Part shown: positions 436-17,307 of the stretch, piece by piece | How positions within the stretch are numbered: position 1 is the stretch's first letter | Layout of the letters: each line of letters begins with the position of its first letter | Source: a virus | Taxonomy: Duplodnaviria > Heunggongvirae > Uroviricota > Caudoviricetes | Length of the DNA: 18,746 bases | Strand: one strand, 5' to 3' | IMG/VR virus record: IMGVR_UViG_2778261514_000005 | Position numbers and translations under genes: made by a program | Notes under the pieces: model-generated | Seen by the model: only the letters and a program-made list of their open reading frames with translations | Told to the model about the DNA's origin: nothing | The model's database searches: none

Positions 436-2163
436 TTATAATGGAAAATACTCAAACCCCGAAACTCCTGACGACACATACTCACCCACGCTGACTGTAC
501 GCCACTGAGAACCGTCAAATGTCACCTGAAGCGGCCTGTAAGATACCCTGTCAATAAGGGTTTTGTTTCCGTCGTTGTAACCGCCAATCCCCGTAATCAT
601 CGCACCAATATCCAAATCCACTGCCCATGTAGTGCTGTCTGTTTGCGGCGCATAAGTCTGTTTATTACCCAGCCTGATACCCACAACCCGGCTCTTCCCG
701 TCTGATGCCCCGGGCGGCCCCATCGGCCCGGTTTCTCCACGCTCACCTCTGGGACCGGGGTCGCCTTTCTCCCCTTTCGGTCCCTGCGCTCCCCGCGGAC
801 CAGCGGGACCTGTTGCTCCCGTTTCACCTTTCGGACCCTGTGCTCCGGGGTCGCCTTTCTCTCCTTTCGGACCGGGAACACCACCTCCTGCAGCAGCCTC
901 TTCTGCCTTTGTTTTCGCTTCATTTGCCACATCCATTGCCGCCTTCACGGCCTTCGGCGTGGCTGCCTTTGTTTCGTCATTACTGTTAGTATCACTGCTT
1001 AACTGCACCACGCCTTTCTGCGTCGTGCTGGCATCCCGCTGGCTGACCGTATCCGGTTTGTTCTTTGTGCTGTAATCCACCCGCCAGTGGAAATACTGTG
1101 TGTCGCCGTAAACCGTACAGGTACAGACCGTGCCATTAATAAACCCCGTTGCACCGTATTCGCCAATGGTGACCCGGACTATGGCTGCCTCATACTTCCC
1201 CATCACCTCAATGACACAACCACCCAGATTAAGTTTTCCCGGTCCGACATCCGTGATTACCTTATTGACTCCCGCATGCAGTGATGCCTTCATCATCCAG
1301 TAAGGCTGGTCAAATGCCCCTTTGGCTTTCAGCCAGGCAACAAACTCGCCCGTGGTCCATTCACCGGCCCCCGTATGAATGTCCCGCCCGTATACTCTGG
1401 CTGCTCCCACGGTGTTCAGAAACTTCACCTTATCCGGGATATCGTCACCGTTTTTCGCTTTCTCCAGGCATCCGTCCGCTTTGTCCATTGCCGCTTTCAC
1501 CGCTTTCGGGGTGGCTGCCTTCGTTTCATCATCACTGTCCGTTGCGCTGCTTAACTGCACAATGCCCTTCTGTGCCGTCGTCGCATCCGGTCCTCCCGGC
1601 TCGCCTTTTTCGCCCTTCTCTCCCCGTTCACCTTTCACACCCTGAAGCCCCTGCGGCCCCCTCTCACCACGCTCACCCTTTGGCCCACGCTCGCCGGTAT
1701 CGCCTTTTGGCCCGGGAATACCCTGTGGCCCGGTGTCTCCCTTATCCCCCTTCGGTCCCCGCGCATTCTCTGCCCGTTTCTTCGCTTCCTCTGCACTCGC
1801 CGCTGACGCTTCTGCACGTTTCAGGATTTCCGCGGCCACCGCTTCCAGCTCTGCAAGGGCTTTCGGGTAATACTGTGCGTCCTCCAGGTCCATCAGAAAT
1901 TTATTCAGCGTTCCCGGTGCAGAGTCCGCCTTCACCAGAATGTCACCCACATATGACGGCGCGTACCCTTCCGTGTTCAGCGTCACCCGGTACAACCCCG
2001 GCTCAACATCCATACTGTAACTGCCGGTTTCCCCCGGCTGACCATACGCCACCGTGGTGACAATCACCGTCTCCGTTGTGCGTCGCGCTTTCAGCTCTAT
2101 CGTGCATCCCGGTACCGGCTTACCGGCCCCGTCTTTCAATACACCAGAAATTTTAACCGTCAT
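436..2163 (-). CDS. stf: Side tail fiber protein (lambda Stf-like) with collagen-like Gly-X-Y tracts
   Basis: 575-aa track ORF. N-terminus [28 protein letters not shown]... matches the conserved Stf tail-attachment domain as I recall it. Two Gly-X-Y collagen-like tracts ([31 protein letters not shown]... and [28 protein letters not shown]...). Two copies of the phage-fiber motif [21 protein letters not shown]. Confidence 0.85.
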
Positions 2164-2312: not shown

Positions 2313-2936
2313 TCAGAAACGGTATCCGATCCCAACAATAAACGCATCCGTTCGCCAGTCACCATGACCGGCCACTTCGTACGCAAGGTCAACCACCACC
2401 GTATCCGCCGGATTAAACTGAAGCCCTGCCCCCCATGCCAGCGTCAGATGACGCGCAGAATGACCATCACTGGCAGTGGTGGTCACCCTGACATCCCCCT
2501 GTGTCACTTCATCACGCCGGTAATCCTGAACACTGTCAGACCAGCGGGTGTGCGCCATCCCGGCCATGCCATAAAGGCTGAGCTGCTCACTGACCTGCCA
2601 GACCGGCCCCGCCATCAGGCTCACATAACGGCCACGCAGACTTTCATAATGAAATGCTTTATCCCCGGTCATCGTGGTTCTGCTCTTTTTCGCAGAGGCG
2701 TAACTCAGCGAGGCTATGCCACCCAGATGGTCCGTGAATTCATAACGGTATTTCACGTTGATCCCTTTTAAATCACCTGTACGGGCACCGGTACCGGACA
2801 ATACCGGCACGCCGCCCGGGTGAACCTGAGCATATCCCACGGAAAATGCACCGTGTCCGCCTGCAGCCTGTGCAGGAAAAGTCATTACTGCCGGCAGGGT
2901 GGTAAAAAATAAAATGGCTCCGTATAAATACCGCAT
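2313..2936 (-). CDS. lom: Lom-like outer membrane protein (Ail/Lom family)
   Basis: Track ORF 2313..2975, trimmed to the internal ATG at 2936 (AAAGAGG RBS upstream). That start gives a signal-peptide-like N-terminus MRYLYGAILFFTTLPAVMTFPAQA, and the protein ends in the beta-barrel motif ...GDWRTDAFIVGIGYRF. It is close to lambda Lom as I recall it and occupies the lambda position between J and stf. Confidence 0.85.
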   Translation of the reverse strand: MRYLYGAILFFTTLPAVMTFPAQAAGGHGAFSVGYAQVHPGGVPVLSGTGARTGDLKGINVKYRYEFTDHLGGIASLSYASAKKSRTTMTGDKAFHYESLRGRYVSLMAGPVWQVSEQLSLYGMAGMAHTRWSDSVQDYRRDEVTQGDVRVTTTASDGHSARHLTLAWGAGLQFNPADTVVVDLAYEVAGHGDWRTDAFIVGIGYRF

Positions 2937-2961
2937 GATTACCTCTTTGTTTTCAGTCAAT

Positions 2962-2985
2962 AAAAAAGGCACCACTTCGGGTGCC
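2962..2985 (-). terminator. Intrinsic terminator between J and lom
   Basis: Minus strand reads GGCACC-cgaagt-GGTGCC followed by TTTTTT, placed between the J stop (3005) and the lom start. Confidence 0.5.
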
Positions 2986-3004: not shown

Positions 3005-6000
3005 TCAGCTGATACTGATTCCCGCCGTGGATTTTTTCATCACCACAACCAGTAAATCACTGATGTACGTCGTCGGTGTCCAGTTGTTCGCGCCGGCAGA
3101 CGACACATTAAACGTCAGGGTGACATGACCCCGTCCTGCTGGCATGTCAATCACCGATGAGAACACCCGGCTGACATCCGTTGCCGGTTCATGAAAAATC
3201 TCTGCCCCGTTTTTCAGCACCTGCAGCTTACAGGTTGAATACCAGTACGACTGCTGATTCGGGCTGTTGACGTTCTGGTGTTTCGTCCCGCGAAACAGTA
3301 CCGGTGGAATGATAATCTGCCGGTCGAAGCCCTGGTCATCGTAAACCGTGACGGTTATCGTGCCACGGGCATAACTGTTATTCCGGGGAAAGGCTTTCCC
3401 CACCGTCTTCACCAGATCGCCTTCAATCTGGTTCGCAGACAGTTTCCCTCTGATGACACAGTTCTCGTTAATGGTGACATTATTGAGCGTGCCCGAGTTC
3501 GCACTGATATGTCCGCTGATGTCCGCATTGCGGGCTGTCAGCCTGCCCTCCGGCGTCAGGGAAAACGTCGGGGGATTGCCGGATGACGTGATACTCACCG
3601 CAAACAGTCGCTTCAGGAACACGTCGTTCATAAACAGCTGATTCCCCTGCGCCACAAACAGCGGCGTGGTGTTGCCGTTCTCCGGGGTAATCATCGCGAT
3701 ACGGTCCGCCTGCAGCAGAATATTGCTCAGCGTCTGGCCATCAGCATCCTCAATCCCCGCACCAATACCGGCAACATACGGAATGCCGTTTTTCGTTTTC
3801 TGCACCTTCAGCATGTACAGCGCTGCCAGCTCATCATTCGTGTCTGACTGGACCTGCTGTATCTGCTGTATGGTGGCGCTCTGGTCTTCCAGCTTTTTAT
3901 CCGTGGTCGAGGTGATTTCACTCCCTTTGTCATCCACGTACTGGCGGACCTGCGCTATCTGCCTGGCGTTTTCCTCCGTGCTCTGGCTGACTGTCTGTGT
4001 GATTTCACTGCTCACCCGGTCCACCTGCTGACTCACCTGCGCGATGGCCAGCGTCTGGTCCTCATTCTTTTTCGCAACCAGCTGCGTGAGGCTGTTTTCC
4101 GCCTCCCCGATTTTTCGGGTCACTTCCGCAACATCCGTCTCCAGTCGCTGGCGGATGTCTTCTTCCAGTTGCGTGACCTCAGTACGCAGGGCTGACGCAT
4201 CAATACGCTCTTTCAGTGCCTTCCCCAGCAGCGCCTCATCTATCAGCCCACGGAAAATTTCCAGATACCCTTCACCATCATTGCTGGCCTGCCCGCTGGC
4301 CTCCACAAACGCAGATTTCCCCACCAGGTTGACGCTGCGCACATAAAACCAGAAATCCTTCCCCGGCTTAATGTGCGGGCCGGAGACGCTCCACTGGCTG
4401 CCGGTACCCAGATAACGGGCAGAGGTTTCCACCTGTGCCGTGTCCGTGATGCGTTTTTCTGAGAACCAGAATTCATACTGTACCGTCGGGTCATACACCG
4501 CAGGATGCGGGACCACCGTTATCTGAAAATAGCCCGGCGTCAGTTCAATGCTGGCCGGTGCCGCCGGTGCATTAATCCGGAATGTGGTGGTGGCAGGTTC
4601 GCCCTGCTGGCCGTAGCTGTTTATCGCCCTGACCGTCAGGGTGTATTCCCCGAGCGGCAGGCCACTGAAACGGTACTCCGTGTCCGCCGTGATGGCGCTG
4701 GTCACCAGGCGGCTGTTCTCACCACTGCCACTGGTCAGGCGCAGACTGAAGCGCACGCCCTTCACCACCCGCGGCGTGTCCCATTTCGCCAGCGCCAGAT
4801 ACTGGCCGTCTGAGGCACTCACCTCCACCGTGAGGTGCTGCACTGCCGGCGGGATGACGCTGTTCAGTGAGCCGGACATCGGCTCAAAGCGGGCCCCGTT
4901 ATCCACAATGGCTTCTTTTTCCGGCACATGCTGCACCGCCGTGATGGCAAAGGTGCCGTCCGTGTTTTCCCGGATGGAAACACAGCGGAACAGGCGACGA
5001 CGCAGTGACGGCAGGGAGAGTCCCCATACCCCGTATGCCTCCACGCCATCCGGCAGGACGCTGACCTGTATCCGGTCAGGGGCCGGTTGTGCAGTGATGT
5101 CCACGCGCACCGGCTTACCGCTGCCGTTAATCAGGTTCACCGTCGATGTCCCTGTCTCAGGCAGTGTCACCTCACGGTCCAGCGTCAGGGTACGGCTGGC
5201 GGCATCGATGGACAGGATACGTCCGCCGGTCAGGGTCCCGGCATAGTCGTTATCACAGATTTCAATGATGTCACCGGGTGTGTGCCGCAGCCCCTGTGAC
5301 CCGAGCGTGAAATCCACCGTCTGCGTTTCCAGCAGTTCGGTCTTTATCACCCACAGTCCGGCACGGTGGGCCTGACCGCGGCTGGTACAGCCGAACGCAT
5401 CCATCTTCAGCAGGTTGCGCCCGTAGCGCAGGATGGCGTCCGGGTCTTCCACCAGTTCCGTGGAAGTCTGCCAGCCGTTCTGCGGGTCAGTGTAATTCAC
5501 CTCCACCGCCGTGTGCCGGTCCTTCAGGGCACTGAAGCTGTAGCGGAACCCCACGCCGTTATCATCCACCACCACATCGCTGTTGGTGTACGGCCACACC
5601 ACATCCGACGGGCGGTCCTGAACGAACGTCAGCGTCTGGCCGTTCCATACCGGCATACAGCGCATCGCCGAGCAGAAATCCCCCAGGACATCCCACACCT
5701 TACGCTGCTGTGACAGGTACGCATTAAAGGTCATCCGCGGCTCTGTGCCCCCGAAACCATCCGGGACCGTCTGGTCGCAGTACTGCCCGATGGCATACAG
5801 CGCCCACTTGTCCACATCCGCGGCCCCCAGGCGTTTTCCCATCCCGTAGCGCGGGTGGGTCAGCATGTCCCACAGGCACCAGGCCGGGTTATTGCTGTAT
5901 GCCGGTTTCAGACTCCCGTCCCAGATACCACTGTAGGTGCGTTTTTCCGGGTCATAGTTTGACGGCACCTGAATGATGCGGCCGCGGATATGGTAGTTCA

Positions 6001-6700
6001 CCACCATCTGCTGGCCACCGAACTGCTCCGCATCCACCTGCAGCCCCACAATGGCCGTGTTCGGGTAGCACTGTTTCACATCGATGATTTCGGTGTATGA
6101 CGACCACAGCGTTCTGTTCTGCAGCTGGTCCGTGGTGCTGTCCGCCGTCACCCTGACCATCCGGATATTAAAGGGGCGCTCAGGGAGATTATTCAGAATC
6201 ACCGACGTCAGGTACTGCGAGGTGGTCTTGCCGTTAATGGTGACATCCTTCTCCGTCACCCAGTTACCGTTACGCTCAAGCTGAATCAGCAGCCGGACAG
6301 AAGAGGGATTACGGTCACCCTTTGAGGTGGTCTCCACCAGTGACTGCACCCCGAAGGTGACCCGCAGACGGTCAATGTTCGCTGACGTGATGGTGCGCGT
6401 CACCGGCTTTGCCTTCGTCACCTCCACGCCCAGTGCGGTTTCCGCCCCGGAGGACTCAAAGCCTTCCGGCGGTGTCTGCTCCTGCTCCCCGGCACGCCAG
6501 ACGGCGGTCACACCGTGTATCACGGGATTACCGTCCGTGTCCGTAAGCGGGGTTTTGTTCACCAGAATACTCTGCAGTCCCTTCACCGGGCCTTCCACCG
6601 GTCCCTCACCAATGGCATCAATCACGCTCATCATCTGCGTGGATTTGAGATTGTCCTTCGCCTCACGCGGTGTGTGCCCCTTGCCGCCCCCTTTACCCAC
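3005..6700 (-). CDS. J: Tail tip / host specificity protein J (central tail fiber)
   Basis: 1231-aa track ORF. N-terminus (M)[20 protein letters not shown]... and long internal stretches are near-identical to lambda J as I recall it. The start codon is GTG at 6698-6700, preceded by a strong AGGAGAGGGGGA RBS. Confidence 0.95.
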
Positions 6701-8510: not shown

Positions 8511-9209
8511 TTACTGCGAAAGTTTATTAATGGAAAGGAAACCGCCAAAATTAACCGCCATGCCGCGCATCTCACACCCGCGCATGTATTTACTGCATCT
8601 GTCCTTCCGGATATCCGTGGTGGGGTTGTCGAACTCATCCGCCACTGCCGGACCGTTATACCCGCATTCATCGCCCCGGTAATCCCACATACAGGTGTTC
8701 GCCAGCATGATGCGACCGGGAAACAGCGCCCCGTCCGTCTCCGTCGGTGTCGCCAGCACAAACGAGGCCGTCATGGCTGTCAGCGATGACATCTGCTCCA
8801 CCACCCACCGGTCCGTCAGCTCCTGCTCCGGGTCGGCCTCCGGATTCCCCGCCACAAAATTCACCGCATCCAGAAAACGGGCATACACCCGGCGGCGGAC
8901 CACCGTGGCACCCACCAGGCTCTGCAAATCCTCCGCCATCCCGGTGACAAGGCCGAACAGATTGGACACCGTCAGCGACGGGCGGGCACTGCTGCCCTTT
9001 CCGTTCATCTCAAAGCCGCTGCCCTCAATCGGGTACGCCTCATACTTCCGCCCCTGCCAGGTCACCGGCTCCCCTTTTTCATTCAGCTCATTGCAGAAAA
9101 AATACCGCTCACCGCCCTGCACCGTCAGGTCGATTTCCCAGAGCACCACCCGCGGTGACTGCTCTGATTTAACCGACTCGTTCAGGCTTGCTTCGTGAAT
9201 ATCCTGCAT
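8511..9209 (-). CDS. L: Minor tail protein L
   Basis: Track ORF 8511..9251, trimmed to the ATG at 9209 (MQDIHEASLNE...). VVLWEIDLT..GGERYFFCNE.NEKGEPVTWQGR.Y..YPI.GSGFE.NGKG ... NFGGFLSINKLSQ is near-identical to lambda gpL as I recall it. Confidence 0.9.
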   Translation of the reverse strand: MQDIHEASLNESVKSEQSPRVVLWEIDLTVQGGERYFFCNELNEKGEPVTWQGRKYEAYPIEGSGFEMNGKGSSARPSLTVSNLFGLVTGMAEDLQSLVGATVVRRRVYARFLDAVNFVAGNPEADPEQELTDRWVVEQMSSLTAMTASFVLATPTETDGALFPGRIMLANTCMWDYRGDECGYNGPAVADEFDNPTTDIRKDRCSKYMRGCEMRGMAVNFGGFLSINKLSQ

Positions 9210-9341
9210 ATATCCGCCCATAAAAAAGGGGCGCAACCGCGCCCCGAACAATAAAAGTCCAATTTAAAATAAAACCAATAAAGGTAATAACAGAAAGTTA
9301 AATCAGCATATGCCAGATGGCAATTGCTGATTGCAGTGACC

Positions 9342-9362
9342 AATGAAAACACTGTTTTCATT
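9342..9362. other. 21-bp perfect palindrome aatgaaaaca-c-tgttttcatt downstream of the porin gene
   Basis: Read directly from the sequence as a 10+1+10 perfect inverted repeat, about 60 nt past the porin stop in an AT-rich spacer. It could be a dimeric-protein binding site or a weak terminator stem. Confidence 0.4.
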
Positions 9363-9418
9363 GATACAGACCGCCTGTAAGGGCAGACGGCCTGTAACCA
9401 TTAACTTACCAGCAACAA

Positions 9419-10513
9419 TCAGAACTGATAAGTCATACCCACAGCAACAATATCATCTGTAGTAATACCGGCTTTCTGAGTAAATTTGTTTTCGTCAATC
9501 AGGTTAATTTTATAATCAACATAGGTAGACATATTTTTGTTGAAGTAATATGTTGCTCCAACATCAATATATTTAACCAGGTCCTGATCCCCATAGTTTT
9601 TCCCACCAACTATAACCTCCTGCCCACGAGACTGCAGGAATGCCAGTGATGGACGTAAACCAAAATCAAACTGATATTGCGCTACAGCTTCAACGTTTTC
9701 TGCCTTATCCGCAATGCCGTTAACCTTATCGCCAAAAGCCGTCATATTTTGGGTCTCTGAATATATTGTCGCAATATACAGATTATTGGCATCATATTTC
9801 AGACCAGCCCCCCACATTTCAGCATATTTACCACTGGCAACAGAGCTTCCTCCATTAACCTGCTTATCAGTACGGTCAGATTTCGTGTACGCCGCTACGA
9901 GACCAAAACCATCAAACTCATAGCTGGCTGAGAAACCATACCCATCACCATTGGCCTTCTGGAGGTCATCGCGCTCATTTTTGCCCTGATACTGCGCCGC
10001 AAAATTCAGACCATCAACCAGCCCAAAGAAATCTGTATTACGGTAGGTCAGAACTCCGGAAGTTCGGGCAGTCATAAAGTTATCGGTCTGAGTCCAGCCA
10101 TCACCACCAAACTCTGGCAGTACGTCAGTATATGATCCGACATCGTAAGCAATACCGTAGTTACGACCGTAATCAATGCTACCAACATCAGCAAATCTCA
10201 GACCTGCAAATGCCAGACGGGTTTTATTTCCCGCGGAACCTTCAGATTCCGTTTTGTTACCAGAGAACTGGTATTCCCACTGACCAAATCCGGTCAGTTG
10301 ATCATTAATCTGCGTTTCGCCTTTAAAGCCGAGACGAGCGTAAGTCTGATCTCCGTCATTACCTTTATCATCCGAGAAGTAATGCAGAGCGGTTGCACGC
10401 CCGTAAAGATCCAGTTTATTACCATCTTTATTATAAACTTCTGCTGCCTGCGCCCCCGCAGCAAACATCACTGCAACTGCTACAGCAGAAAGTGCCACTG
10501 TCATTTTTTTCAT
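9419..10513 (-). CDS. General porin of the OmpC/OmpF/PhoE (GBP) family, prophage-encoded cargo gene
   Basis: 364-aa track ORF with signal peptide [23 protein letters not shown]. Mature N-terminus [15 protein letters not shown], internal ...VLPEFGGD...[22 protein letters not shown]... and C-terminus ...[18 protein letters not shown]......AGI.TD.IVA.G..YQF with terminal Phe are classic enterobacterial porin signatures. Codon usage is visibly more AT-rich than the flanking tail genes. Confidence 0.9.
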
Positions 10514-10711
10514 GATTTAATCCTTATTTAAACTGAACTATTCATGCATTCAGATGTCATGAACAAAAATTAAAATATTTTAATACAAATTCTTAGTTCA
10601 ATTTATATTACGTAACAAAATGTAAATACAGGATCGATTTCGCACTTTCTGACAAGACAGATTAAAAATAATTAACAACTAAACAATAAAGAATGATTTA
10701 TAGGATAATTC
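10514..10711 (-). promoter_or_regulatory. AT-rich upstream region of the porin gene; probable own promoter with an OmpR-box-like motif
   Basis: ~200-bp AT-rich spacer between the M stop and the porin start. Minus strand contains TTTACATTTTGTTACGTAAT (plus coordinates 10607-10626), which resembles the ompC OmpR C1 box as I recall it, and possible -35/-10 pairs such as TTGTTA ... TAAGAAT. AAGGA RBS sits 8 nt before the ATG. Confidence 0.35.
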
Positions 10712-11053
10712 TCATCTAACTACCTGCTCTATCGTGCAACTGAAATCACTGTACCGGGCGTTATCCGTAATACTCCACTCCCGGCACACCACCCTGACCG
10801 TCCGGTTATGTTTCGGGGGCTTCCACAAAAAAGCCCGGTAACCACCATGCCATGACAGAAACGCGGACAGTGCCTCCCGCTCAGCATCCGTTGTCACCCG
10901 AAAAACCACCTGAAAGGTCTTCAGTTGCGCATTCAGTCCTGCCGGACGACGCTGCTGATAACCGTCGCCAAACTTCACCGTCATCACCGACGGTTTCTCC
11001 GTCACCTGCATCCCTTCCCGGGGACACCAGTGAAGGGTCTTAATCTCATCCAC
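10712..11053 (-). CDS. M: Minor tail protein M
   Basis: 113-aa track ORF. ...VKFGDGYQQRRPAGLNAQLKTFQVVF...FLSWHGGYRAFLW.PP... matches lambda gpM as I recall it. Start overlaps the H stop by 8 nt. Confidence 0.85.
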   Translation of the reverse strand: MDEIKTLHWCPREGMQVTEKPSVMTVKFGDGYQQRRPAGLNAQLKTFQVVFRVTTDAEREALSAFLSWHGGYRAFLWKPPKHNRTVRVVCREWSITDNARYSDFSCTIEQVVR

Positions 11054-14000
11054 TCAGCATTCCCCCGTCACGTCGCATGGACAGCATCACCGCCTGTACC
11101 CGCTGGTCAATCAGTTGCACAAGGGTGCCCGCCGCTTCCGGCCCTATCTGCCCGTTAGCGCCGTCATTCTGAATGGCGATGTGGTACACCGGAGAATACA
11201 CCAGACCCGCACTGCCGTTCATGCTGCCCACCGCACGCACGCCGAGTGAACCATCCGCTGCCCGGGTCAGGGGCATTATGGCTTCAGGTCCGGCCTCCCC
11301 CATCAGCCCTGCCCCTTTTGCAAAGGCAAAGTACGTGGGCGTGTCCACAATACTGTTACTGTATGCACTCAGGTTTGCCGAGGTATAAACGCCGCCTTTT
11401 GCATTTGCCACCGCGCCACCCAGCCAGTTGCCTATACTGCCGAAAAATCCTCCTGCACCGGACATACTGTTTGCCGCCATCTTAATGCCGTTGACAATGG
11501 CCGCATTCATAAGAACTTTTGATATTTCCTGCAGGATTGATGCAGCCCAGCTGCGCCATTCCACTTTATTTCCGTTCAGCATATCCGTGATGTTACTTAC
11601 CATCCCTGAGATACCGTCTGTCGCAAGCTGTGCTGCCTGTGAAGCGTAATCTGATGCGCTGTCCACCCAGTTGCTGACCCCCTCCTGCAGTCCTTTCTGC
11701 CAGTCAGCACGCTGCGCATCCGATTCGGCATAAAAAGCCTCCTGGTCTTTAAGGCGTTCACTCAGATACTGCGCATTCTGCGCCAGCGCCTGTCTGTAAA
11801 AATCCTCACTGATATCCCCTGTCTGATACTGAGACTGCAGGTCCGCATCCTTCTGGCGGTAGCCGTCACGAATCTGCTGCAGCTCCCGCATCCGTTCACG
11901 GCCCCGCTCACCCTGCCCGTACCCCAGCAGCTCTGCGTCATTTGATGCCCTTGCGTCTGCATTATCATTTTTCAGGGTCTCCTCCCGGGCCCGTAACTGC
12001 TCCCGGATTTTCTTCTGGTCAATCAGGGCAGCATTGCGCAGCAGCTCCTGCTTCTGAATCTCCGTCAGGGTTTTCAGCTCGCCCTGCGAGGTCTGGTATT
12101 TCAGTTTTGCCAGTTCTGTATTCTTCCCTGCCAGTCCCAGTTGTTCCTTCTGCTGCTTCAGCAGACGGGAAAAACTGTCTTCCGCTTTTTCCGTCTCAGA
12201 TTTTCCGCCCCGGGATTTGGGTTTATTCGCCTCATTATTGCGCCAGGCTTCCATCGAATTACGGATGTAACGCTGCCTCGCCTCCTGATACGTATCCCCC
12301 ACCAGACCAAGGTCATCCGCCGCATACCCCAGCCGGGCACGCTCTTTTTCTTCCCCTTTCCGCCGGGACAGGGCAAGTTGACGCTCTGTGTTATTCAGGG
12401 CGCTCTGCTGTTTATCATCCAGAGTGGCCTGTGGCAGTCGCAGCGGTACACTCGCCAGTCCCTGACGCTGTTGCAGCAGTTCATTACCCAGCCCCAGCAG
12501 GCGGTTGAATTCCGTATGCTGAACATTCATCTGCAGTAATGCCTGGTATGCCCTGTTCTGCTCTGCCGCCTCCTCACGTATCCTCGCTACACGGTTGTAC
12601 TCCAGTGACGCCAGCGTTTCCTGTACAGACCTCGCCCTTTCCTGCATCTGTGTCAGTCGTGACTGTTCAACCGCCAGCCTGCCGGTTGCCTCAGCAAGGC
12701 CGTGGGTTATAATCTCCGCACCTGAACCACCCTGTGGATTTTCCTGCAGCCAGCGCTGATAGTCAGCAATCTGTGTTTTCAGTCCCCGGACTTTACTTTC
12801 CTGCTCAGCAATCAGACGATTCTGCTCTTCCAGTGCTTCGCGGGTTTTACCCTCATTATCAGCCAGTTCCGGAAGGGTCATTCCTGGCAGCTTTGCCCGG
12901 ATTTCATCAATCGTCGATGCATACTGGCGCGCGGACTCCCTGGCCTGTTCCTGACGCTGGTACACCGTGTACCAGGCACCGGCCCCAAGCATCAGTAAAC
13001 CGGGTATCCCGCCGACCAGAGAAAGCAGGGATGCAGCGCCACTTTTCAGCATTCCCGTAACCGACGTGGCATTCTCCAGCGCCTTCCCCGAGGCCGCCAC
13101 TGCATGATTCGACTGCACCAGTGCAGCATTGGCCACAATCATGGCCCGACGTTTTGCGACGGCATTCTGTGTGACCAGCGCCTCCGCACTGGTATTTCTG
13201 GCCACGGCGAGTTCTGCCTGTGCCAGTTGCCAGGCACGTTCTGCCGCCAGAGCGTCAGCCGCCGCCTTACGTTGCACCTGAACCGCAGCATCTGCCTGCG
13301 CCGCTGCCAGGGCAACAGTGCCAGACTTCGCAGCAAGCAGTTCTGTCGTGGCCTTTCCCACACCGGATGCCATATTGCCAAAGTACCGGGCGACCCCGAC
13401 AGCAACCAGCACACCCGCAGCTGTTGCCACGGTATCAATATTTCCGGCCACACCGTTCAGCACGCCGGAGAGCGTTTTCGTCGCTCCGCTGGCCTCATTC
13501 GCGCCACCCACCCAGGCCATAAAGGCGTTTTCCACCTTCGTGATCCCGTCAGCCACCGTTTCCGGCATGGCTGCATATTCATCACGCAATATCCCCAGCT
13601 GGCTGATTAACGCGGGAACGACTTTATCCGCCGTCAGTTGACCATCGTCCGCCATCGCCTTCAGATCTTTACGGGCCACGCCCATGCCTGCAGCCAGTGC
13701 GCGAATGATCCGGTCCCCACTTTCATTGACCGAATTAAATTCCTCACCGCGTAACACACCCTGTGCCAGCGCCTGGCTGAACTGGGTGATCACCGAACCC
13801 GCCTCTGCCGTACTGGCACCGGAAATTTTCAGCCCTGTCGAAATGGCCTCCGTCACCTTCAGCACATCATCAGCACTGTAACCATATTCACGCATCGAGG
13901 CAGCCGAACGGGCAAACAGGGCCGCATTATCCGAAAATGCGGTGCCTGTCCGCTGGCTGATATCCATCAGTACTTTCTGTGATGACGAAAATTCATCTGA

Positions 14001-14312
14001 TGACTGCGACGCCTGTTTCAGACGGGCATTCACGGAGCTCCATTCATCCGCCAGCGAAATCAGGTGTCCGGTGGCAAAGGCACCGGCAAACGCACCGGTC
14101 ATTCCGACAGCCGAAGCGCGGATTTCCGTCAACTGGCTGTTCAGCTCAGCCAGAGCCCGGCGCTGCTCCCTGGCTGCCGCAGCAGCCTGACGTCCGCCAT
14201 TCTGCAGGGTCCGGTAATATTCACTGCCCATACGGGATGCCCGCTGGATCTCCGACTGGAATGACTGTGAATTTGCCGAAATTTTGATAATCAGTTCACG
14301 TAACGTCGCCAT
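11046..14312 (-). CDS. H: Tail tape measure protein (lambda H-like)
   Basis: 1088-aa track ORF, Ala/Gln-rich with coiled-coil character and a Gly-rich hydrophobic segment, in the canonical position after G/T. Strong GAGAAAGGTGA RBS before the ATG at 14312. Confidence 0.9.
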   Translation of the reverse strand: MATLRELIIKISANSQSFQSEIQRASRMGSEYYRTLQNGGRQAAAAAREQRRALAELNSQLTEIRASAVGMTGAFAGAFATGHLISLADEWSSVNARLKQASQSSDEFSSSQKVLMDISQRTGTAFSDNAALFARSAASMREYGYSADDVLKVTEAISTGLKISGASTAEAGSVITQFSQALAQGVLRGEEFNSVNESGDRIIRALAAGMGVARKDLKAMADDGQLTADKVVPALISQLGILRDEYAAMPETVADGITKVENAFMAWVGGANEASGATKTLSGVLNGVAGNIDTVATAAGVLVAVGVARYFGNMASGVGKATTELLAAKSGTVALAAAQADAAVQVQRKAAADALAAERAWQLAQAELAVARNTSAEALVTQNAVAKRRAMIVANAALVQSNHAVAASGKALENATSVTGMLKSGAASLLSLVGGIPGLLMLGAGAWYTVYQRQEQARESARQYASTIDEIRAKLPGMTLPELADNEGKTREALEEQNRLIAEQESKVRGLKTQIADYQRWLQENPQGGSGAEIITHGLAEATGRLAVEQSRLTQMQERARSVQETLASLEYNRVARIREEAAEQNRAYQALLQMNVQHTEFNRLLGLGNELLQQRQGLASVPLRLPQATLDDKQQSALNNTERQLALSRRKGEEKERARLGYAADDLGLVGDTYQEARQRYIRNSMEAWRNNEANKPKSRGGKSETEKAEDSFSRLLKQQKEQLGLAGKNTELAKLKYQTSQGELKTLTEIQKQELLRNAALIDQKKIREQLRAREETLKNDNADARASNDAELLGYGQGERGRERMRELQQIRDGYRQKDADLQSQYQTGDISEDFYRQALAQNAQYLSERLKDQEAFYAESDAQRADWQKGLQEGVSNWVDSASDYASQAAQLATDGISGMVSNITDMLNGNKVEWRSWAASILQEISKVLMNAAIVNGIKMAANSMSGAGGFFGSIGNWLGGAVANAKGGVYTSANLSAYSNSIVDTPTYFAFAKGAGLMGEAGPEAIMPLTRAADGSLGVRAVGSMNGSAGLVYSPVYHIAIQNDGANGQIGPEAAGTLVQLIDQRVQAVMLSMRRDGGMLSG

Positions 14313-14330: not shown

Positions 14331-14351
14331 AAAAAAACCGCCTCAGCGGTT
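14331..14351 (-). terminator. Small hairpin plus U7 between T and H (terminator-like or attenuator)
   Basis: Minus strand reads aaccgc-tgag-gcggtt followed by TTTTTTT, lying between the T stop (14360) and the H RBS. The stem is only 6 bp. Confidence 0.3.
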
Positions 14352-14359
14352 CTCATCAT

Positions 14360-14674
14360 TCATGACTGTGCTGCAAAGCTCAGCGCGTCTTCCAGCGCCG
14401 CAAACGGATCCACCTCCGGCTTATCCTCATCCTCGCCCCAGCAGAGCATGGCGTCCTTCAGTGCAACATTCATCCCCTGTGCCCCGAAAACCGCTTTCAC
14501 GATCTGTGCATTACGGATATCCCCGCGCTCATCACCCAGCGGGGATACCCTGTCGAACTCCATCCACATCATCGCCTCGCTCGCACTCAGGCTGTGGCGC
14601 AGTTCGGATAAGGTGCGCCCCAGACGGAGCGCAAGTCGCATCAGAAAGCGAATTTCCGGGCGGGCTACTTTTTT
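14360..14674 (-). CDS. T: Tail assembly chaperone T, the -1 frame extension of G (G-T fusion product)
   Basis: Track ORF 14360..14641 in the -1 frame relative to G. Translating that frame back from the slippery site gives KKVARPEIRFLMRLALRLGRT..., continuous with the track protein. Confidence 0.75.
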   Translation of the reverse strand, partial: KKVARPEIRFLMRLALRLGRTLSELRHSLSASEAMMWMEFDRVSPLGDERGDIRNAQIVKAVFGAQGMNVALKDAMLCWGEDEDKPEVDPFAALEDALSFAAQS

Positions 14675-16980: not shown

Positions 16981-17307
16981 TCATAACACCGTCGGACAAC
17001 GCAAATCGTAAATCAGCACGGAAACAGAAAACGGCAGCTCCCCCTGAAGCAGTTCTTCCCGCTCCGCAAGATCCGGATTCCGGTACAGCATCCCGGTCAG
17101 TCGCATGGCAGCCCCCTTCATCCGGGTTAATGCCTCGCCCGGGATCAGTTCACCGTCCTCACGAATCACCTTATCCCGGCTGCCCTGAATGTAGGCCAGC
17201 AGCACGGCGGTAGCCTGACGAACCTTCTCCATCAGCATGTCATCATCCGCGTCATGGTCGACACGCAGATGTGCCTTGATCTCTTCCAGTGTCAGTAATG
17301 CCGTCAT
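16981..17307 (-). CDS. gp6-like head-tail connector protein
   Basis: 108-aa track ORF. N-terminus MTALLTLEEIKAHLRVDHDADDDMLMEKV... is typical of the gp6-like connector family. GGAGG RBS, and the start overlaps the stop of the upstream gene (ATGA). Confidence 0.7.
   Translation of the reverse strand: MTALLTLEEIKAHLRVDHDADDDMLMEKVRQATAVLLAYIQGSRDKVIREDGELIPGEALTRMKGAAMRLTGMLYRNPDLAEREELLQGELPFSVSVLIYDLRCPTVL

Follow-up and report, generated by a model that had tools for sequence, protein, structure and literature searches.

Phage PA-2 uses OmpC as its receptor, and the receptor of phage 434 has likewise been the subject of original work. PA-2 and the prophage DLP12 each carry a general porin gene (lc and nmpC, respectively) inserted between Q and the lysis genes. 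The 3' end of the phage porin transcript gives rise to IpeX, an RNA of ~170 nucleotides (nt) that ends in an intrinsic terminator (PMC12197685) and lowers OmpC/OmpF (PMC12197685, PMC8065619). Here we describe a porin cassette with an IpeX-like 3' untranslated region (3'UTR) in IMG/VR virus record IMGVR_UViG_2778261514_000005. The record is an 18,746-nt stretch of DNA (the window), which is the tail part of a defective lambdoid prophage of the Shiga-toxigenic type of E. coli. The cassette sits between the tail genes M and L, and the same operon encodes J, the tail tip attachment protein, with a receptor-binding end resembling those of J proteins that use OmpC. The best overall explanation, to which we assign a probability of roughly 0.55, combines the two: an OmpC-type J and a cassette whose IpeX-like RNA would lower host OmpC/OmpF, so that the lysogen would become a poorer target for OmpC-dependent phages.

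A first-pass annotation of this DNA had speculated that the prophage porin could exclude superinfecting relatives, by analogy with PA-2 and Lc. The analogy holds for the porin, which is of the Lc/NmpC branch, and extends to a structured, IpeX-like 3'UTR complementary to the ompC start; it breaks down at the insertion site, which differs from that of lc and nmpC. The proposed link between a porin swap and exclusion is strengthened in that the sequence now suggests a concrete candidate mechanism, like that of PA-2 Lc and IpeX in kind and housed in a different cassette at a different site.

The 3'UTR spans 197 nt from the porin stop codon to the end of the terminator U-run. Its minimum free energy is –73.4 kcal/mol, compared to –47.2 ± 4.0 kcal/mol for shuffled sequences (z = –6.5). 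Relative to the allele of a mouse strain, the 3'UTR is 92.3% identical, compared to 84.6% for the coding sequence, 63.5% for its third codon positions, 61.7% for the upstream DNA and 50.6% for the end of M; no other part of the insert is as well conserved as the 3'UTR. When seven alleles were aligned with MAFFT, three stem-loops, an unpaired spacer of ~55 nt and the terminator emerged, and the terminator stem is invariant in all alleles. Eight of the 38 pairs show compensatory double changes, and 99.2% of the alignment cells at paired positions are paired. For the seven alleles, none of 500 shuffles matched the observed counts (0–1 of 500 across all control sets), and slid controls gave 0–3 compensated pairs. 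Addition of 32 IMG/VR contigs, which contributed three new variants for 10 distinct sequences in all, yielded the same picture. This pattern points to purifying selection on the RNA, which argues for a function. The element occurs once, and at most twice, per carrier genome, and is thus no dispersed repeat. Two exact-pattern scans of species-representative genomes for the element returned no match, as befits an accessory element. A scan of the whole window against Rfam (E ≤ 1) found nothing at the porin 3'UTR, MicF and MicC included, its only match being an isrK-like one elsewhere (see below). This conserved IpeX-like RNA, which is without an Rfam family, is the most interesting element of the window.

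Like IpeX, the window RNA lies at the 3' end of a prophage porin transcript and has a terminator at its end. The corresponding regions of PA-2 and DLP12 are likewise ~150–200 nt long, with three hairpins, a spacer rich in A and U, and a terminator of the form GGGGCG...CGCCCC. We derived a covariance model from the new 3'UTR family alone, leaving IpeX out, and it recovered full-length IpeX after the stop codons of lc in PA-2 and nmpC in DLP12 (38.5 bits, E about 1e-8). The same model gave a weak match to K-12 micF (13.9 bits), in which the seed and the terminator were aligned. The unpaired stretch beginning GAUUUAACUUUCUGUUAUUACCUUUAUUGG... is identical at 21 of 25 positions to MicF nt 10–34, the ompF-binding 5' region, a likeness that none of 300 shuffles reached. 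Its likeness to the 5' end of MicC was reached in 11 of 300 shuffles and is not significant alone. MicF and MicC, the chromosomal antisense RNAs for ompF and ompC, are independent, divergently transcribed genes; the window RNA forms the 3'UTR of a porin mRNA and has three extra 5' hairpins. It ends in AU-rich sequence and a terminator hairpin with a U-tail, an arrangement typical of Hfq-dependent small RNAs (sRNAs).

We then compared antisense alignment scores of the 3'UTR with those of dinucleotide shuffles, using K-12 translation start regions as targets. K-12 can stand in for other strains as the ompC target, because 5365 of 5426 genomes have an ompC leader of at least 99% identity. Against the reverse complement of the ompC start region the 3'UTR scored 36, compared to 18.1 ± 2.9 for the shuffles, the highest of which scored 29 (0 of 300 at or above the observed score). 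MicC and IpeX, run as controls in the same test, each scored 32 against ompC. The score against the ompF start region was 28 (0 of 300 shuffles). The leader of the prophage porin itself gave a score of 18 against a shuffle mean of 17.4, a value reached by 121 of 300 shuffles and hence not significant. The predicted duplex of the seed-like stretch with ompC extends from –37 to –4, over the MicC site and the Shine-Dalgarno sequence (28 base pairs, –28.5 kcal/mol). The same computation gave –22.5 kcal/mol for MicC-ompC and –26.7 kcal/mol for IpeX-ompC; both IpeX and the window RNA are complementary to the ompC leader. Raw RNAduplex energies were set aside as evidence, as they discriminated poorly between ompC, ompF and the porin's own leader. 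Because such energies are not very specific for AU-rich RNA, the alignment-based test was given more weight.

The insert that carries this RNA is 1502 base pairs long and has a GC content of 0.409, compared to 0.567 in the rest of the window. It separates M from L, which abut in lambda and 434. Morons are inserts of deviant base composition that separate genes adjoining each other in related phages, and the cassette has both properties. The known lambdoid morons (lom, bor and the HK97/HK022 morons) are likewise extra units of deviant GC content, with their own terminator, between genes adjacent in relatives; the present one differs from them in its cargo, a porin together with a regulatory RNA candidate, and in its site inside the tail-tip gene block. 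Among the genomes examined, the M-porin-L order is intact in seven further E. coli genomes and persists as a remnant in an eighth, and it is found combined with two kinds of head module, HK97-like or lambda-like. Of 5426 complete E. coli genomes, 105 carry the cassette (~2%). Its identity reaches at least 99% in six carriers and about 92% in 63, most of which are Shiga-toxigenic or bovine isolates; the remainder, many of them from mice, fall at 83–86%. The cassette is labelled simply "porin OmpC", and we found no study of the cassette.

Upstream of the porin gene, an OmpR C1-like box aligns with TTTACATTTTGAAAC upstream of K-12 ompC, which we take to be the OmpR C1 site. This motif and a few downstream blocks are kept in alleles with upstream DNA that is otherwise only 62% identical. 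Because the box aligns with the ompC regulatory region, the sequence suggests that porin expression is osmoregulated. The PA-2 record differs in this respect, as it annotates CRP sites.

The first-pass annotation had called the product of the inserted gene an OmpC-family porin, which was borne out in part. The open reading frame (ORF) is real: its product has a signal peptide and a C-terminal YQF, scores 519 bits against the NCBIfam porin OmpC subfamily model NF007841 (cut-off 484), and is identical to a protein for which PF00267 is recorded, all as in a general porin of the OmpC/OmpF/PhoE family. It is no OmpC orthologue, being 64% identical to K-12 OmpC, lacking the long L4 insert of OmpC and standing nearer to PA-2 Lc and DLP12 NmpC (73–74%); its RefSeq name "porin OmpC" derives solely from the subfamily model. 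The porin belongs to the same branch as Lc and NmpC, yet it forms a separate cluster with its own alleles at 80–92%, and its loops L5–L7 differ from theirs. In a large protein collection, this cluster comprises E. coli alleles of 364–387 amino acids (aa) with 80–87% BLASTP identity, plus one from Citrobacter farmeri. Beyond the cluster, Citrobacter porins and NmpC/OmpD come closest, at about 71–75%. In the phage collection the best protein match was 73%, and no deposited phage record there carries this porin; a porin gene is also found in the phage 434 and PA-2 records. The barrel is nearly identical among alleles. Loop L5 carries an insert of 0 to ~28 aa that is variable in sequence, and some alleles have extra residues in L6. 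The window allele is the shortest of them and is rare, being confined to the six genomes at the top of the identity range. By these comparisons, the porin appears to be a separate lineage of prophage porin at an unusual site.

E. coli DETEC-P1056 retains an intact porin and 3'UTR, although all that is left of the prophage around them is a piece of the tape-measure gene and an L with a frameshift, lying among IS66 elements. Retention of the porin in a fully decayed prophage implies a host benefit independent of the phage. This benefit fits a serious alternative, in which the cassette is ordinary host-fitness or virulence cargo (for permeability, bile or antibiotic tolerance, or escape from antibodies, colicins or contact-dependent inhibition) without any phage exclusion, and the 3'UTR only terminates and stabilises the porin mRNA. 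Hypervariable L5 and L6 loops would be expected under pressure from any surface-binding agent, OmpC and OmpF serve as receptors for CdiA toxins (PMC5056734), and the cassette is not specifically linked to one J type (see below). Still, we consider a fitness role unrelated to phages rather doubtful. A bare terminator and stabiliser leaves unexplained why a 45-nt single-stranded stretch, antisense to the ompC start and similar to the MicF seed, is conserved, and it does not account for the apparent kinship of the 3'UTR to IpeX. In addition, lower OmpC would alter the susceptibility of the host to OmpC-dependent phages anyway.

The exclusion reading that we prefer also involves an OmpC-type J. 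Two J proteins with an experimentally assigned receptor are close to that of the window. In A8, an engineered lambda gpJ, the C-terminal part derives from a natural E. coli phage and OmpC is used instead of LamB; delivery into a lamB ompC double deletion took place only when ompC was supplied from a plasmid (PMC11338833). Phage phi330 does not plate on the Keio ompC strain and is rescued by Plac-ompC (PMC12502783). The J ends of phi330 and A8 are nearly identical. When aa 937–1231 of the window J were compared with all solved structures, the top match was "A8 gpJ 713" (PDB 9wca/9wcb) with 446 bits, compared to 304 bits for lambda J; entry 9wcb also contains an OmpC chain. Comparison of A8 with lambda places the swap junction between SGTL and NNVTI, and the transferred determinant therefore corresponds to aa 1073–1231 of the window J.

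The first-pass annotation had proposed aligning the J C-terminus with J proteins of known receptor. Over aa 1073–1231 the closest are A8 gpJ (78% identity) and phi330 J (77%), compared to 48% for lambda J and, by multiple alignment, 47% for 434 J. The earlier view that this end is not a conserved LamB-type domain agrees with this result, and the lengths of the receptor-facing hairpin loops also differ from those of lambda. In the complexes of lambda J with LamB (PDB 8xcg, 8xcj and others), the overall architecture is shared with the window J, and it is the receptor-binding end that differs. Compared with A8 gpJ and phi330 J, the window J end is of the same domain family and length and has the same C-terminal strand and rim hairpin. 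It carries 35 substitutions in 159 aa relative to A8, three of them in the barrel-inserting hairpin. An AlphaFold3 model of phi330 on OmpC predicts that the hairpin E953–S962 (ENFNSNNQQS) reaches into the barrel and that A1015–P1020 (ANNWTP) lies on its rim (PMC12502783), and the contact hairpins considered here are those predicted by that model. The position of the barrel hairpin is the most variable loop among J alleles. The rim hairpin is the same in the window, A8 and phi330 and different in lambda and 434.

Because its end is of the A8/phi330 type, J most likely binds OmpC and not LamB; its place in this OmpC-type clade is well supported by sequence, and we predict that it uses OmpC. At the protein level, the J end is 97.5% identical to J of BP-4795, Shiga toxin 2 (Stx2) phage 1717 and many Stx1a/Stx2a phages. 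The J part is therefore already known, and it is a common, catalogued allele of the OmpC-type clade.

It is unlikely, in our view, that the J end binds some other outer-membrane protein, such as OmpF, a narrow set of OmpC alleles, or an NmpC/Lc-type porin like the one of this prophage family. Such a shift would be consistent with the 22% of the domain that differs from A8, three of the ten barrel-hairpin residues included, and with the observation that A8 and 1A2 already differ in the OmpC alleles they accept and in their range (PMC11338833). Also, the tail fibre of phage 434 targets OmpC (cited in PMC12502783) at only 47% identity, and sequence and receptor are therefore loosely coupled. On the other hand, the rim hairpin and the length of the barrel hairpin are kept, and among the relatives found, no experimentally typed one at similar identity has a different receptor. 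That the J end is still a LamB-binding domain, merely drifted in sequence, is highly improbable: the fold and many framework residues are common to lambda J and the two ends can be aligned throughout at 48%, but the window J shares 77–78% with two tips that are OmpC-dependent and do not require LamB, and the loops departing from lambda are those predicted to touch the receptor.

In the exclusion reading, J with its lambda-like body and A8/phi330-type end would bind OmpC. The cassette, probably acquired independently, brings an OmpR-box-like upstream region, a porin of the Lc/NmpC branch with hypervariable L5/L6, and a 3'UTR of ~195 nt with a strong terminator. This 3'UTR would be expressed in the lysogen and processed into an IpeX-like sRNA. 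Through its single-stranded MicF/MicC-like stretch, this sRNA would base-pair at the translation start of the host ompC mRNA (and that of ompF) and reduce synthesis of both proteins. The phage porin, with a leader of its own that is predicted to offer no target, would take over diffusion. As less OmpC would then be displayed, the lysogen would be harder to infect for OmpC-dependent phages, relatives with the window J among them, and it may gain protection from other OmpC-dependent agents as well. The basis in hand for this scheme consists of sequence relationships, the insertion, an RNA structure with covariation, and complementarity. Purifying selection on the RNA, covariation of its stems, a conserved antisense seed, hypervariable exposed porin loops and survival of the porin after prophage decay all argue for a function of the cassette.

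A more far-reaching form of the same idea, which we hold only tentatively, takes the M–L insert as a self-contained receptor-swap cassette. Here an OmpR-responsive porin with fast-evolving surface loops would be coupled to an sRNA from the 3'UTR, with a MicF/MicC-like seed, that silences OmpC/OmpF and spares the phage porin. Lysogens would resist OmpC-dependent phages, even kin of their own prophage, and perhaps also colicins and contact-dependent toxins, and the cassette would be of enough use to persist after the prophage is gone.

Several observations weigh against exclusion through an sRNA-assisted porin swap. At the level of the RNA, BLAST found no match to the 3'UTR in the phage collection, which has the PA-2 record among its entries, and the 38.5-bit covariance match to IpeX is not far above reverse-strand self matches (34 bits). 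Seed mismatches occur in the diverged alleles, for which pairing is predicted across the ompC start codon instead, at about –24 kcal/mol. Duplex predictions for AU-rich RNA are also permissive: mononucleotide shuffles of the seed reached the ompC energy in 4 of 200 cases, and the raw duplex energy of the seed with the porin's own leader is similar to that with ompC. As for expression, a scan for consensus sigma-70 promoters found none on the porin strand, where there are only the OmpR-box-like motif and the conserved blocks, and for this reason promoter activity of the porin upstream region is something that we infer. On the side of J, an identity of 78% is compatible with a different receptor or a different range of OmpC alleles, given that the ranges of A8 and 1A2 differ. 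Among seven genomes, the J ends accompanying the porin are A8-like in five, 46% identical to phi330 in one and 21% identical in another. Because ~60% of the J homologues in the phage collection are A8-like anyway, this represents no enrichment of A8-like J with the porin. The mixture of J alleles implies that the cassette travels with the tail block in general and not with the window J in particular. Finally, the prophage cannot produce virions alone, its portal gene being split by IS600.

If the RNA tail does silence OmpC/OmpF, the PA-2/IpeX porin swap would have a second, independent counterpart in this cassette, with comparative support (covariation, a conserved seed, loop hypervariability) better than that for PA-2/IpeX. 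Expectations for carrier strains, many of which are Shiga-toxigenic or bovine isolates, would also shift with regard to phage therapy, OmpC-targeted vectors, antibiotic permeability and typing based on outer-membrane proteins. The J part allows OmpC to be proposed as the receptor for a large group of long-tailed Stx and non-Stx prophages, a proposal that bears on the spread of Shiga-toxin genes and on the design of lambda-derived delivery particles. Coordinates of the features are collected in Table 1.

Table 1. Features of the porin cassette, of J and of the neighbouring tail genes (positions in the window)
Feature	Position	Strand	Remarks
Structured 3'UTR RNA (IpeX-like candidate sRNA)	9222..9418	minus	Stem-loops (SL) SL1 9366-9395, SL2 9341-9363, SL3 9302-9331; spacer; terminator
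Single-stranded seed-like stretch GAUUUAACUUUCUGUUAUUACCUUUAUUGGUUUUAUUUUAAAUUG	9260..9304	minus	Antisense to ompC start region
Intrinsic terminator GGGGCGCGGUUGCGCCCC, then U-run	9222..9245	minus	7 GC pairs (terminator scan); 13 nt before L start codon
Moron: porin gene with own upstream region, 3'UTR and terminator	9210..10711	minus	Inserted between M and L
Prophage porin, Lc/NmpC/OmpD branch of general porins	9419..10513	minus	364 aa
OmpR C1-like box TTTACATTTTGTTAC	10612..10626	minus	113 nt upstream of porin ATG
J (tail tip attachment / host specificity protein)	3005..6700	minus	1231 aa, GTG start
Heptad-rich (coiled-coil-like) J insert of ~100 aa, aa 834-937	3890..4201	minus	Alignment gap versus lambda J
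J receptor-binding domain, aa 1073-1231	3008..3484	minus	Segment swapped in A8 chimera
J aa 1142-1151, counterpart of phi330 hairpin E953-S962	3248..3277	minus	7/10 identical, equal length
J aa 1204-1209, ANNWTP, counterpart of phi330 A1015-P1020	3074..3091	minus	6/6 identical
Tail gene L	8511..9209	minus	232 aa, ATG at 9209; TIGR01600 phage_tail_L, 374 bits; right flank of moron
Tail gene M	10712..11053	minus	ORF; "phage tail protein" in S19-651 record; left flank of moron
V, G/T, H	11046..14312	minus	Downstream of head-tail connector genes in operon order
Ail/Lom-family outer-membrane protein	2313..2975	minus	Downstream of J
Tail fibre	436..2163	minus	Two collagen-like Gly-X-Y repeat blocks

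Over its whole length, J scores 2312.8 bits against the NCBIfam model lambda_TipJ NF049904 (cut-off 1950), which places it in the lambda TipJ family, and the match to lambda J in PDB covers aa 1–835. In a global alignment with lambda J, aa 1–835 are ungapped and 72.7% identical, aa 936–1072 are 56% identical, and the last 159 aa are 48% identical (49% by multiple alignment). The first-pass annotation had contrasted ~800 aa tracking lambda with a divergent last ~240 aa (3008..3733, or aa 990–1231, the final 242 codons). The lambda-like body and a diverged end are both real, and the J peptide strings it quoted are found in the translation; strong divergence is confined to the last ~160 aa instead of extending evenly over 240, and the insert at aa 834–937 had been overlooked. 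This insert has no counterpart in lambda and 434 J and is an extra coiled-coil segment of the body relative to A8 and phi330. In a multiple alignment, most other E. coli prophage J proteins are ~73 aa shorter in this region; RM10042 has the insert too. The heptad-rich segment would make the central fibre longer.

The window covers the tail region, with all large genes on the minus strand in lambda-like tail operon order; K and I lie between L and J. In four related prophages, a Hok/Gef toxin gene takes the place of lom. A prophage of E. coli S19-651 (human stool, Zurich) is 99.9% identical to the window and adjoins the trp operon, at a truncated ompW gene. Past the left edge of the window, the end of the S19-651 prophage carries as extra cargo a gene for an S6-family (SPATE-like) peptidase autotransporter and a YadA-like adhesin gene. 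At the other end of the window, IS600 orfA begins at 18056, and because IS600 splits the portal gene, the prophage is defective. The portal-gene remnant ORF at 17304..18017 (region 17304-18746) runs into IS600. It contains tandem PVPRDGRDYDP-type repeats, the copy number of which differs from that in S19-651. The isrK-like Rfam match lies at 14331-14398 on the minus strand and is below threshold (27.1 bits compared to a gathering score of 50, E = 0.023). It includes a terminator-like hairpin, and most of it lies in the intergenic stretch that separates the tail assembly gene from the tape-measure gene H.

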